From Thermoplasmata archaeon (lineage in GTDB: Archaea; Thermoplasmatota; Thermoplasmata; Lutacidiplasmatales; UBA184): a DNA stretch of 64,000 nucleotides. Shown here one piece after another: positions 6,371-10,128 of this stretch. The notes beneath the pieces are model-generated. The model had not been told where the DNA came from, did not search any database, and saw only the letters and a list, made by a program, of their open reading frames with translations. The stretch is taken from assembly GCA_027314915.1 (NCBI GenBank), contig DAHUZZ010000004.1, positions 30,368-94,367 of the forward strand, written 5' to 3'. Both the position numbers and the translations under genes were made by a program. Each line of letters starts with the position of its first letter. Within the stretch, counting starts at the first letter, position 1.

Positions 6371-8668
6371 CTACGCCGCGGGGAGCCGGCGCTGGCCGAT
6401 CGCCTCCGGGGAGCGGTACCGCCCCTCGGGCGGCCCGGGCGGCTCGGGCCACTCCTCGAGCAGCGCGCTCCGCCCGACGCCGAGCGGCGCAAGGAGCGTC
6501 TCCGCCGAGCGCGCGAGGAGCTCGAGGTAGGCGCCCCGGTCGTACGACGTCCCGGGCTCCAGGAGCTCGGCGATCCGGACCCGGTCGCGCCAGCTGCGGG
6601 CGCGCCGGTCCACGATGACGTAGCGGACCGTCTCGCCGGGCTCGCGCACGACGCCGTGGTGGGCGAGCTGGCGGAGCGCGGCGACCGCCTCGTTGAAGAC
6701 GGAGTACTCCACGAGCGGCTGGCTCACCCGGTGGGCGATGAGGAGCTCCTCCACCGGCCAGTCGCCCCCCGCGACCTTCTCGGCGAAGAGCCGGGCCCGG
6801 GCGAGCGCCCGGGGAAGGAGCGCCCGCACCGCCGGGGCATCCGGGGCGCGCGAGAACAGGTCGAGGATCTCCCCCTCGAACCGGCGGAGGAGGAGGGGGG
6901 TGTCGTGGCGCCGGGAGCCGATCCCGCGGAGCTTGAACTCCCCGTGCTCATACCGCCCGTAGTACCGGTTCGGCACGCCGAGGCCGGTCCGGGCCGGCAG
7001 GAAGAGGATCCACCGGTACCGCCCCTCGTAGCCGAGCGGGAGATCGCACCGCGTGCTCATCGCCCGGGCGAACGCCTCCGGGTCGGGCGGGTGCTCCCGG
7101 TCCTTCGGCTCGAGCCAGAGGGAGTCCACGATGCCGTGGAGGACGCGGTACCCGGCCGCCTCCGCGGCGGGGAAGAGATCGGCGAGGAGCTCGCGTGCGT
7201 AGGCGTTGATCGCCTCGTGGCACTCGATCCGGCCGAACCGGGCGTTCCGGTACCCCTGGTAGCCGAAGGCGGTGACGAGGATCCACTTGAGCATCTTCAC
7301 CCGGTGGGCGTACCGCTTCCGCTCGGCGTCGGGCCGGGCCGGGTCCTTCGCCTGCGCCTTGTAGGCGAGCCGCCGGGCCAGGAGCGGCCCCAGGGTCCGG
7401 GGGATGAGCCCGATGCGCCGGGTGCAGGAGCGGTAGCCGAGCCCCGGTGCCCGCACCGGCGAGCGGGGGCAGCACGGGCAGTCCAGCGTCTCGATGGAGA
7501 GGTTCCTCCGCACCATGATGTGCGGGTAGAGGCTCGCGAAATCGAACTCGTCGACCCGGTCGTGGACGCCGACCGGCGGCAGCAGGATCACGCCGCCGCG
7601 GTCGCCGGCGAGCAGCGTCCGCGCCGACTTGAACCCCTCGGGCCGGTTCTTCTTCCACGGCACGTGCACCCCCTCGTCGCGCGCGTGCGCCATCTCCATG
7701 GCCGTGAAGCAGGTGCCCGGCGACTGGCGGATCACCGTCTGGAGCGAGAGCCGGCTCAACCGGGAGGCATCGACGAGCCCGTCCAGGTGGGCGTCGTCGT
7801 ACAGCATCGAGTTCGCCCGGTCGAGGTGGAAGCGCCCGACGAGCGGGTACGTCGCGTCGGTGTGCACGATCCTCCCGTAGGTCATGTAGGAGGCGGCCCG
7901 GCGCGCGGGCCGGTACGGCGCGCGCCGCCGTCCCAGGACGAACGTCTCCTCCGTGAGCCCGTGCGCGGCCGCCCGGCGGTAGAGCCACGGGAGGTCGAAC
8001 GCATCCCCGCCGCTCGTGAGCAGCACGTCGGGGTCCTGCCGGGCGAGCTCCCGGCCGAGCTCGCGCACGAGCTCCTCCTCGGGTCCCTCGAGCTCGATCC
8101 CGCCGAGCCGGATCTTCCGGATCGTGTCATCGGCACGGACGATCCCGTCCCGGCGCCCCTCGGCGAGCTCGATCGCGAACGGGACGCTCCGCAGGGGCGG
8201 CGCCTCGTACTCGAGCGTGGCGGCCGGCTCGAGCGCGCGGAGCCGTCCCGGCCCCTCCTCGACGACCGGCGCGAACGGGTAGAGCCGCCGCTCGAGGTAG
8301 AAGAGCTGCGCGGGCGCAAGGTCGACATCGTAGAGGGTGAACCGTACGTACCCGCCCCGGGCGTCGAGCTCGCCCGCGAGCCGCTTCCGGTCCGGGTTGC
8401 GCGCGGGGGTGACGGAGAGGAGCGGCCGGGTGCGCCGATCGAAGAGCGTCGGACGGACCGCGCACCGCTCCACGGAGGCGACCCGGGGATCGCCCGCGAG
8501 CTCCCCGGCGAGCGCGTCGAGCCGGCCCGTCTCGCCGTCGACCAGGAACGGCGGCCGGTACTCCACCACCTGCTCGTCGACCCGGCCGTCCCGCCCCTTG
8601 AGCCAGATCCGGAGCGAGCGGCCGTCCGGCTCCTCCGTGACGTCGAGGATCCACCGCGGGGAGGGCAT
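6371..8668 (-). CDS. polB: Family B DNA polymerase with degenerate catalytic motifs (PolB2-like?)
   Basis: Motif A [10 protein letters not shown] is present. Motif B is [13 protein letters not shown]. Motif C reads LHGIVDSLW in place of YxDTDS. Exo I reads FAIE in place of FDIE. Exo II FDLPWL is present. The start is [10 protein letters not shown] (ATG 8668-8666). Confidence 0.9.
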   Translation of the reverse strand: [765 protein letters not shown]

Positions 8669-8706
8669 CGTCCCTGCGAGGGCGCCGGCCGCCCGTCCGG
8701 CCCCGC

Positions 8707-8991
8707 CTACCGCGCCCGGGCGGCGGCCCGGGGCGCGGACGCCGGGTGCGCCGCCCCCTCGGCGGGGGGCGGCAGCTGGCGGGCGAGGTCCAGGAGGACG
8801 GAGAGGAGGATCGACTCGAGGAGGTCCGGACTGCCCACGTACGTCGCCTGCGCCACGTACCGCCGGGCGCCGAGCCGGATCCGCTCGAAGGCCGCGCGCT
8901 CCTCGGGCGTGGTCAACAGCCGCCCGAAGGAGTCCCACCGCCTCAGCCGCTCCTCGAGCGCCTGACGGTACGTCGGGGCGGTGCGTCCCAT
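8707..8991 (-). CDS. Hypothetical small helical protein (94 aa)
   Basis: ATG 8991-8989 is preceded by GGAGGTGA with a 4-nt spacer. GC3 is high. It overlaps the 3' end of the upstream gene by 49 nt and ends 38 nt before the polB ATG. Confidence 0.55.
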   Translation of the reverse strand: MGRTAPTYRQALEERLRRWDSFGRLLTTPEERAAFERIRLGARRYVAQATYVGSPDLLESILLSVLLDLARQLPPPAEGAAHPASAPRAAARAR

Positions 8992-9797
8992 GCCATCACC
9001 TCCGCGTCGGTGATCGGGGCGAACTCTTCCAACCCGTGCTGGCCCCGGGGCCGGGGCAGGAGGAGGCACTCGGCGGACTCCCGGTAGGCGACCATGCGGA
9101 GCCGGTCGCCCCGGGGACGGAAGCTCACCACGTCGTTGAGCCGGGGCCCGAGCTCGGTGAGGCCGGGGAACCGGGCGGGACCGCCCGGCACCGTGAGGAG
9201 GAGCGGGGCCCGGGTCGCGGCGACGATCCCGCGCAGCTCCTCCGCGACGTGCGACAGGAGCGGCGCGTACTCCTCCCGCGGCACCTCGTCGCTCTCGAAG
9301 AGCGCGGGCAGCTCGTGGCCGATGAGCAGCGTCGGGCGGTACCGCCGCGCCTCCCGGGCCCACCCGTCCACGAGGGCGACCAGCTGGTAGGCGGTGAACG
9401 CCCGGGCGAGCCGGATCCGTTCGAGGACCTCCCCGGGGTCGACGCCGAGCGGCCGGCCGCCCTCGGCGATGCGGTAGGGGTCGAACCGGTTCGCTCCCTC
9501 GAGGAGCAGGATCCGGCCCCCGACGGCGGCGCTGCCGGCGTAGAGGAGGTCCAGGACCCGGTCCATCGCGGAGGAGGGCCCCATCCACAGGGTCGCCTCC
9601 CCCGGGGCGAACCGGCCCGCGAGCCAGGGGAAGAGCGCCCCCTCCGTCGGCAGGATCGGGGCCGGGGCGGAGGGCGCCCGGGGCACCTCGGCCCGGCGGG
9701 ACCGCGGGCTCCGCTCCGGAAGGGGAAGGGGTAGGGTCGGCTCCCCGGGCGGTCCTGGGAGGACCGCCGGCGGGAGCGGCACGGTCGTCGCGCTCAT
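8943..9797 (-). CDS. RecA-superfamily (RadB/KaiC-like) protein with degenerate Walker A
   Basis: The layout resembles a RecA core, but the P-loop position reads GPSSAMDR instead of GxxGxGKT. The Walker-B-like strand is TLLIGHELPALF, followed by LLSHVAEELRGIVAATRAPLLLTV. The start is MSATTVP (ATG 9797-9795). Confidence 0.6.
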   Translation of the reverse strand: MSATTVPLPPAVLPGPPGEPTLPLPLPERSPRSRRAEVPRAPSAPAPILPTEGALFPWLAGRFAPGEATLWMGPSSAMDRVLDLLYAGSAAVGGRILLLEGANRFDPYRIAEGGRPLGVDPGEVLERIRLARAFTAYQLVALVDGWAREARRYRPTLLIGHELPALFESDEVPREEYAPLLSHVAEELRGIVAATRAPLLLTVPGGPARFPGLTELGPRLNDVVSFRPRGDRLRMVAYRESAECLLLPRPRGQHGLEEFAPITDAEVMAWDAPPRRTVRRSRSG

Positions 9798-9831
9798 CGG
9801 AACACCTCGGGCGATCGAGCCCGGGGGGCCC

Positions 9832-9838
9832 CTTAAGG
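9832..9838 (-). promoter_or_regulatory. TATA-like element for the RecA-like/small/polB operon
   Basis: CTTAAGG is an isolated A/T patch in GC-rich DNA, 35-41 nt upstream of ATG 9797. Confidence 0.35.
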
Positions 9839-10128
9839 GACGGAGCAGGGGGAGTGAAACGCCCGTTGAGAGAACGCCGTTTCCCCGGTCCCGGGCACGG
9901 GGTGCTTCAGGACCGGCCCATCTCCCGCCGCGTGCCCGACCGGGAACGGCCGGTGGCGCGACGAGCTCCACTTCGGCCTGCTGCGCGGCGAGCTCCGCGG
10001 ATCCCGCCTCCGCCCCGCGGAACCCCGGTCCGGTGCGGTCATCGGGCCCGACGGGGCGACCCCCTCGGCGGCGCGCGCCCAGGGGGCCGCGGAGCCGCAC
10101 CCCGCGGCGCCCGACCCGGGGAGCCGGC

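Follow-up and report, generated by a model that had tools for sequence, protein, structure and literature searches.

A chromosomal PolB2-PPB2-iRadA cassette of a high-GC Thermoplasmata archaeon and its correspondence to the described PolB2 mutasome

The window analysed here is a 64-kb stretch of DNA from a Thermoplasmata archaeon (assembly GCA_027314915.1, contig DAHUZZ010000004.1), and the subject of this report is a cassette of three genes on its minus strand. In a preliminary description of this DNA the cassette had been read as encoding an inactivated RecA-like protein, a small helical protein and a degenerate family-B DNA polymerase behind one TATA-like element, and had been likened to the ImuA/ImuB-style mutasomes of bacteria. 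All three co-directional open reading frames (ORFs) are present, and the gene order on the minus strand is DUF72, iRadA, PPB2, PolB2: a DUF72 gene lies directly upstream of the cassette (10129..10899, Pfam DUF72 E=2.5e-64), followed by iRadA (8943..9797; 284 residues, RadA/Rad51-fold, no ATPase motifs), PPB2 (8707..8991; 94 residues, arCOG07300 / Pfam DUF8156) and PolB2 (6371..8668; 765 residues, a family-B polymerase of the PolB2/Dpo2 group). The cassette is an ordinary member of the PolB2-PPB2-iRadA operon that has already been described, and its own clade is included in the catalogue of Timinskas et al. (2025, PMC11791011). The G+C content of the window is approximately 75% throughout, as a result of which mechanical ORF lists are crowded, and a filter based on the G+C content of third codon positions (GC3) selects precisely the three reading frames of the cassette. 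The same four genes are called in the deposited annotation of two Thermoplasmata metagenome-assembled genomes (MAGs) that contain the same DNA (GCA_027315845.1 and GCA_027315785.1). Close homologues of the cassette proteins were all labelled Thermoplasmata archaeon, and the host is a high-GC member of this class.

The three genes and their products

The product of iRadA had been described as having a RecA/RadB/KaiC-like strand-helix periodicity, and profile searches, PDB comparisons and structure prediction agree on RadA/Rad51. It matched Pfam Rad51 (E=4e-5, 23.5 bits, gathering cutoff 22), the only NCBIfam models matched were those of Dmc1, Rad51 and RadA, and among PDB sequences phmmer found the Pyrococcus furiosus RadA (E=9e-7). 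The AlphaFold2 model, built with 60 homologues as input, had a mean predicted local distance difference test score (pLDDT) of 86.9, and its top Foldseek matches were the ATPase cores of RadA, Rad51 and DMC1 (E~1e-11, probability 1.0, target template modelling score 0.66-0.70). In this model no secondary structure is predicted for residues 1-53, and the N-terminal HhH domain of RadA is therefore absent. Both readings of the nucleotide-binding site in the preliminary description hold: a degenerate P-loop, GPSSAMDR (residues 73-80, 9558..9581), directly follows strand beta1 at the position where RadA has GSGKT, no GK[TS] being present in the protein, and LLIGHE (residues 157-162, 9312..9329) aligns to LLIVDS of RadA, so that the Walker B Asp is replaced by His161, which is invariant in the 60 homologues. 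Closer to the C-terminus lies a sequence resembling a PCNA-interacting-protein (PIP) motif, QHGLEEFA (residues 253-260, 9018..9041), of which Q253, G255, E258 and F259 are conserved in the same 60 homologues. In the catalogue, QRGMEEFG and QSHLEAFG of Thermoplasmata iRadA are scored as PCNA motifs, the former being orthologous to QHGLEEFA (PMC11791011), and the protein is thus predicted to carry a clamp-binding motif. Translation would start from a Shine-Dalgarno-like GAGGTG (9803..9808, minus strand), 5 nucleotides before the ATG at 9797. A 385-residue version of the gene starting with a GTG at 10100 was rejected, as it would cross the conserved promoter described below, and the deposited annotation and the homologues favour the ATG at 9797.

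PPB2 matched no family in the copies of Pfam and NCBIfam that were searched, and all 255 of its homologues in the databases carry Pfam PF26485 (DUF8156) by precomputed annotation. The protein begins with MGRTAPTYRQ (arm MGRTAPTYR at 8965..8991), and among 43 homologues there is no variation at G2, R3, T4, P6, T7, Y8, R9 or Q10. Its helical nature, proposed from the sequence, is reproduced by the AlphaFold2 model, which consists of three helices (residues 8-25, 29-52 and 55-72). As to the sigma-like resemblance reported for PPB2 (PMC11791011), sigma-factor N-terminal domains appeared in the Foldseek list at ranks 12 and 19 only (E>5).

The 5' end of PPB2 and the 3' end of iRadA share 49 nucleotides (8943..8991, minus strand), PPB2 being read in the -1 frame relative to iRadA. 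The ribosome-binding site of PPB2, GGAGGTGAT (8995..9003, minus strand), ends 3 nucleotides before its ATG, within the iRadA codons for A-E-V-M. The arrangement is conserved in related loci, where GGAGGTGA(T) precedes the PPB2 start codon (ATG or GTG) and both elements sit in iRadA codons for E-E-V-I/M-A-W. The separate ribosome-binding site and the overlap, both noted in the preliminary description, were found in 83/83 related loci, and the overlap measures exactly 49 nucleotides in each. The last 16 residues of iRadA come from codons that, in the other frame, specify the N-terminal arm of PPB2, and 12/16 residues are invariant at the start of PPB2 versus 1/16 at the end of iRadA, where the tail is disordered (pLDDT <50); selection on PPB2 is thus the simplest explanation for the apparent conservation of this tail. 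The published 3:1 stoichiometry of PPB2 to iRadA would fit with a strong internal ribosome-binding site, and the fixed overlap together with the 9-10-nucleotide Shine-Dalgarno site could be what sets this ratio. A programmed -1 frameshift fusing iRadA to PPB2 was also considered, as such fusions exist in other lineages, and is unlikely: the overlap showed no slippery heptamer, and the arm of PPB2 requires its N-terminus to be free.

PolB2 starts with an ATG at 8668 (MPSPRW...), 38 nucleotides after the PPB2 stop codon, as it does in GCA_027315845.1. Against NCBIfam it scored 409 bits with NF004418 and 352 bits with NF004416, and at most 125 bits with the DNA polymerase I models. In the alignment to the Pyrococcus abyssi PolB, motif A is intact (DFASLYP, 7523..7543), whereas motif B (7250..7288) keeps the Lys and has lost the Asn, Ser and Tyr of the P. 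abyssi sequence KILANSYYGYYGY (K..NSYYGYYGY), motif C reads HGIVDS (7121..7138), with IVD in place of DTD, and Exo II reads GGDAFD (7994..8011) in place of NGDNFD. The KxY motif is RY. The preliminary description had called Exo I, motif B and motif C degenerate, which is borne out for the two polymerase motifs; Exo I gave no alignment to canonical PolB, the Pfam exo1 match covering profile positions 142-226 only, and by its position it would be FAIEL (8165..8179) replacing FDIET. The proofreading exonuclease site appears to be lost. Among 21 clade members the motif-A D376, the motif-B K461 and the motif-C D515 are invariant and the mean column identity is 77%, which argues against a decaying gene.

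An FxxA-like sequence, FKSA (residues 346-349, 7622..7633), was placed in PolB2 by its spacing from motif C, on sequence only, and DR (residues 356-357) begins seven residues on (DRGG, 7592..7603). F346 is conserved in at least 90% of the clade, D356, R357, G358 and G359 are invariant in it, and the motif is also found in catalogued PolB2. The arrangement fits the beta-alpha motif, similar to the RadA oligomerisation motif and followed by D(K/R), by which PolB2 is described to bind iRadA and the PPB2 arm (PMC11791011).

Judged by profile scores and pairwise identity, the polymerase is assigned to the PolB2 clade, its similarity to catalogued PolB2 exceeding that to PolB1 and PolB3. With the catalogued Thermoplasmata protein PNX53385.1 it shares 35% identity over 402 residues (E=7e-72), in an alignment that includes the N-terminal/exonuclease half; this half is barely alignable to PolB3. 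It is also 33% identical over 389 residues to a catalogued Bathyarchaeota PolB2, and 54% identical to the same-clade catalogue entry MCI4338934.1 over the 155 N-terminal residues available for the latter. A segment of 31 residues spanning motifs B to C has exact matches in 5 catalogue entries, MCI4338934.1 among them. PADLOC returned nothing relevant, PolB2 matching its 'HEase' model, seemingly through generic PolB similarity.

Two side observations concern the PolB2 reading frame. Its C-terminus (6383..6394) has a conserved YRSPE..xQxxL, in which Y751, S753, E755 and Q759 do not vary, and after it a variable tail whose last residue is F or Y in some relatives; the region may be an additional, weak motif for clamp binding. 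ARAGORN predicted a 91-nucleotide tRNA-Val(GAC) at 8462..8552 (minus strand) within the coding sequence; this is probably a false positive of GC-rich coding DNA, as no tRNA was found there with Rfam, which returned no RNA family anywhere in the window at the gathering threshold.

Correspondence with the published PolB2 mutasome

The trio had been taken in the preliminary description for a system undescribed in archaea, and this does not stand: it was reported in 2013/2014 (PMC4104785) and catalogued in 2025, same-clade Thermoplasmata included (PMC11791011). Makarova et al. (2014, PMC4104785) predicted operons of an 'inactivated' PolB2, a helical protein of approximately 90 residues (arCOG07300) and an inactivated RadA (arCOG07763, arCOG04294, arCOG08101) in many archaea and some bacteria. 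Timinskas et al. (PMC11791011) renamed the two partners PPB2 and iRadA, catalogued the operon types in archaea and bacteria under the name 'PolB2 mutasome', and modelled the PolB2:iRadA:PPB2 complex with AlphaFold as a 1:1:3 heteropentamer. According to the same source, PPB2 is defined by an 'MGRT' arm with Arg3 and Arg9, clamp-binding motifs reside mostly in iRadA, and Thermoplasmata have type '1a (iRadA-PPB2-PolB2)' operons after DUF72, in which motif C reads HGIVDSLW (IVD) and iRadA has PCNA motifs. For the Sulfolobus Dpo2, whose motif C reads IID, polymerase activity and a requirement in targeted mutagenesis are reported (work cited in PMC11791011), and Dpo2 and its neighbours in Sulfolobales are induced by 4-nitroquinoline 1-oxide (NQO) or ultraviolet light (UV) in an Orc1-2-dependent manner (PMC6061795).

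Set against these descriptions, the cassette has the same three families in the same type 1a order with DUF72 upstream, the IVD motif C and, as far as the motifs can be read, the loss of the exonuclease site, the same PPB2 MGRT arm with R3 and R9, and an iRadA with neither HhH domain nor Walker motifs and with a PIP-like sequence close to the C-terminus. Nothing essential differs from the PolB2 mutasome as presented in the available passages of PMC11791011, in which the 49-nucleotide overlap and the operator/TATA promoter described below are not mentioned. The operon of Sulfolobales differs in gene order, being PPB2-PolB2-iRadA versus iRadA-PPB2-PolB2 here. What is modestly new is hence the invariant overlap (83/83 loci) and the conserved operator/TATA promoter, both being small, testable additions.

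Upstream region, synteny and genomic setting

A promoter/operator conserved across relatives lies 5' of iRadA (9832..9883, minus strand). Its parts in the window are GAAAC (9879..9883), GTTCT (9871..9875), GTTTC (9856..9860) and the TATA-like TTAAG (9832..9836), and the consensus of the upstream regions, compiled from 61 non-redundant sequences, is GGGAAACGCCCCGTTCCCGGCCyGTTTCAACG.C.CCCGAGCCGCCGCTTTAGAGCGG. The architecture is GRAAC-N5-GTTCY, 6-7 nucleotides, GTTTCA, approximately 20 nucleotides and a TTTAG/TTAAG box. The GRAAC half-site was present in 60/61 upstream regions (0.06 expected per upstream window) and TTWAR at 24-27 nucleotides from the start of GTTTC in 59/61 (0.008 expected), the spacing being 24-25 nucleotides in 57/61 and 26-27 nucleotides in two more. 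In the 64-kb window there is a single copy of the composite GTTTC-N17-21-TTWAG, which matched in 0/100 shuffles; with N18-20, 71/72 matches in 86 loci were directly upstream of iRadA, once per related locus. A search for further operator/TATA copies in the window and in the ±6-kb flanks of 80 loci returned one only, in L061. The one TATA-like element of the preliminary description and a single transcription unit are supported by this pattern, since a promoter conserved upstream of iRadA only points to one transcription unit that starts there and excludes DUF72. With the conserved promoter lying between DUF72 and iRadA, DUF72 would belong to another transcript and is probably outside that of the cassette.

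The operator bears a likeness to the Orc1-2 damage-response element of Sulfolobales in having GTTTC/GAAAC and GTTCC/GGAAC half-sites by a TATA box. The Sulfolobus element has the consensus AATAGTTTCRG with the core 5'-ANTTTC-3' (PMC6061795), and differs in its first base, which is C or T, not A, in the operator. The Pyrococcus origin recognition box (ORB; ...AGTTTCATTTCCACTGGAA..., with AGTTTCA and TTCCA..TGGAA; PMC1904270) differs in the arrangement of the half-sites. No orc1/cdc6 gene was found beside the cassette in the clade, nor among 24 window proteins scanned against Pfam. The likeness to Orc1-type sites is a resemblance and serves as a lead only; that the operator is the Thermoplasmata counterpart of the Sulfolobales element is a tentative proposal, which we consider possible but doubtful.

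Conservation of the gene order was assessed by scanning one genome per GTDB species, of which 147 species matched, and synteny was taken from the best 80 of these relatives, whose PolB2 is 61-68% identical to that of the window and which include UBA184 and 'Ca. Lutacidiplasmatales' MAGs. With tblastn of four window proteins, iRadA-PPB2 was found directly upstream of PolB2 in 77/80 loci, so that the trio is syntenic in 77 related species, and in the remaining 3/80 the contigs end before the genes upstream of PolB2. Rearrangements were seen in single loci: an IS605-family TnpB (OrfB_IS605 and Cas12f1-like TNB, 4581..5999 in L025) splits PPB2 from PolB2, approximately 3.4 kb including a DUF981 gene lies between the same two genes in L066, and in L068 the block of iRadA, PPB2 and DUF72 has the opposite orientation to PolB2. 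In most of the 80 loci DUF72 lay no more than 6 kb upstream, and DUF72, SRAP, orc1/cdc6 and lexA are reported to be enriched near polB2 (PMC11791011). Two loci (L005 and L006) have an extra 256-residue ORF (4319..5089), with no Pfam match, between DUF72 and iRadA.

The large subunit DP2 of the replicative-type polymerase PolD is encoded in the same window (59157..62513, minus strand), which makes PolB2 an accessory polymerase. A PolX-family polymerase (HhH and pol-beta thumb; 41173..42966, plus strand) and a class II ribonucleotide reductase (34088..36880, plus strand) were also found, and the host thus carries at least PolD, PolX and PolB2. Downstream of PolB2 lies a gene with HEAT/PBS-lyase repeats (4691..6244, minus strand; HEAT_2 E=7e-63; start probably ATG 6169), preceded by an AT-richer sequence, CCATAAGGGACTAACCGATAGGG (~6176..6198), that may be its own promoter; in L005 this gene does not follow PolB2. 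Other genes of the window comprise subunit A of an A-type ATPase (18473..21613, plus strand), which contains an intein with a LAGLIDADG homing endonuclease (Pfam Intein_splicing, LAGLIDADG_3), further A-ATPase subunits D, I, C and E (23077..28592), and, unrelated to the cassette, two DUF929 paralogues (29848..30933 and 57625..58863, both minus strand) and a large STAND-like protein with AAA_16 and TPR (47968..50319, minus strand). Three of the related sequences (proteins P0017 and P0148, 3,046-nucleotide contig; locus L031) are labelled 'Acidimicrobiia bacterium' or 'bacterium' and are ~60-80% identical to Thermoplasmata proteins; mis-binned archaeal contigs are a likelier explanation than recent transfer to bacteria.

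Proposed mode of action and alternatives

We read the locus as a chromosomal type 1a PolB2 operon in a lineage of high-GC Thermoplasmata that replicates with PolD, acting as follows, and put the probability of this reading at about 0.82. A single promoter, made up of the TATA-like TTAAG and the GAAAC/GTTCT/GTTTC operator, would give a tricistronic mRNA, from which PPB2 would be translated by means of its own strong Shine-Dalgarno site within the last iRadA codons. The products would assemble as in the published heteropentamer model, in which a trimer of PPB2 joins single copies of PolB2 and iRadA. PolB2, which retains the motif-A Asp and the second Asp of motif C, would by analogy serve as an exonuclease-deficient translesion or mismatch-extender polymerase. 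Unable to bind or hydrolyse ATP, iRadA would be an adaptor that docks on the FxxA-like loop of PolB2 and recruits PCNA through its PIP-like motif, and the MGRT arm of one PPB2 subunit would insert between PolB2 and iRadA near the DNA. The assembly of the complex, the activity of the polymerase, its induction by damage and the contact with PCNA are all carried over from the literature on homologues; expression may be induced by DNA damage, the local clue being the operator that resembles the Sulfolobus Orc1-2 element.

Several points weigh against this account. The experimental basis of PolB2 function is confined to Sulfolobales, and the complex is known from AlphaFold models only (PMC11791011). 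Motif B without its Asn and Tyr, together with RY as the KxY motif, means that catalytic competence in this clade is extrapolated from Sulfolobus. The confidence of the PPB2 monomer model is only moderate (pLDDT 71), and its Foldseek comparison, suggested in the preliminary description, gave no significant match in the PDB (best E=2.3). In iRadA the PIP-like QHGLEEFA is missing the second aromatic residue and is not at the extreme C-terminus.

An alternative is that PolB2 is catalytically dead and that the trio forms a structural or regulatory complex, for instance at stalled forks or in replication control. The dead-polymerase reading is said to have been held by Rogozin 2008. It was also proposed by Makarova et al. 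(2014, PMC4104785), and it would account for the Ile in place of the first Asp of motif C, the missing Asn, Ser and Tyr of motif B, the degenerate Exo I and Exo II, and the loss of Walker A and Walker B in iRadA. However, the polymerase motifs being degenerate, as the preliminary description had rightly seen, does not mean that the enzyme is dead: the Sulfolobus Dpo2, with IID, is reported to be active and needed for damage-induced mutagenesis (PMC11791011, introduction), and the invariance of D376, D515 and K461 and the 77% column identity among the 21 clade members speak for selection on the active site. We therefore regard a dead polymerase as unlikely, and an active PolB2 in an operon of type 1a as the better account. 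That the gene is instead a replicative, PolB3-type PolB, or one carried by a mobile element, provirus or casposon, is suggested by its top PDB sequence matches, which are PolB3-type enzymes of Thermococcales (E~1e-38); these, however, cover mainly the C-terminal half and reach 136 bits versus 409 bits for NF004418. Catalogued PolB2 aligns with the whole of the N-terminal half. PolD is encoded in the window, the chromosomal context is conserved in 77 species, the base composition is uniform, and neither an integrase nor terminal repeats came to light. This possibility was rejected as very improbable in view of family scores, similarity of the N-terminal half, PolD, context and composition.

The mutasome idea of the preliminary description agrees with the literature in so far as a damage-tolerance polymerase is joined to an inactive RecA protein and a helical partner; the part that does not survive is homology to ImuA-ImuB-DnaE2. 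The likeness to the latter is one of architecture, in that an error-prone polymerase shares its operon with a dedicated inactive RecA-fold protein, but the bacterial system has a C-family polymerase and an inactive Y-family ImuB and no PPB2, and its ImuA is RecA/SulA-like whereas iRadA is RadA/Rad51-like. No homology was detected with Pfam or NCBIfam: the polymerase is of family B, no Y-family ImuB-like gene was found in the cassette or its flanks, iRadA matches RadA/Rad51/Dmc1 models only (E<=1), and the PPB2/DUF8156 gene in the middle is without counterpart in Imu operons. Common descent of the two systems was rejected as having next to no probability, and by its sequences the cassette is analogous, not homologous, to ImuA/ImuB/DnaE2. 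A comparable analogy, drawn by Timinskas et al., exists with the Escherichia coli Pol V (UmuD'2C-RecA), where a translesion polymerase is likewise combined with a RecA-family protein bound via an oligomerisation-like motif, and where the N-terminal arm of the small subunit reaches the active site, as it does in the published model of the PolB2 complex (PMC11791011). The differences are that Pol V is a family Y, not a family B polymerase, that its RecA is the active cellular recombinase and not a dedicated inactive paralogue, and that UmuD' is unrelated to PPB2 and the system is under LexA control.

As a discovery the locus is of low value, the system having been predicted in 2013/2014, found by Sulfolobus genetics to drive damage-induced mutagenesis and modelled structurally in 2025. 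It is a clean, typical example from soil/peat Thermoplasmata that replicate with PolD, and it confirms strong selection within the clade on the PIP-type motif of iRadA, the MGRT arm of PPB2 and the FxxA-like loop of PolB2. The promoter and the overlap could help to find the damage-response regulator and its regulon beyond Sulfolobales. If the operator were indeed a counterpart of the Orc1-2 element, a DNA-damage regulon under an Orc1/Cdc6-type regulator would exist in an uncultivated lineage of euryarchaeal grade, and a genome-wide search for the motif could map it.

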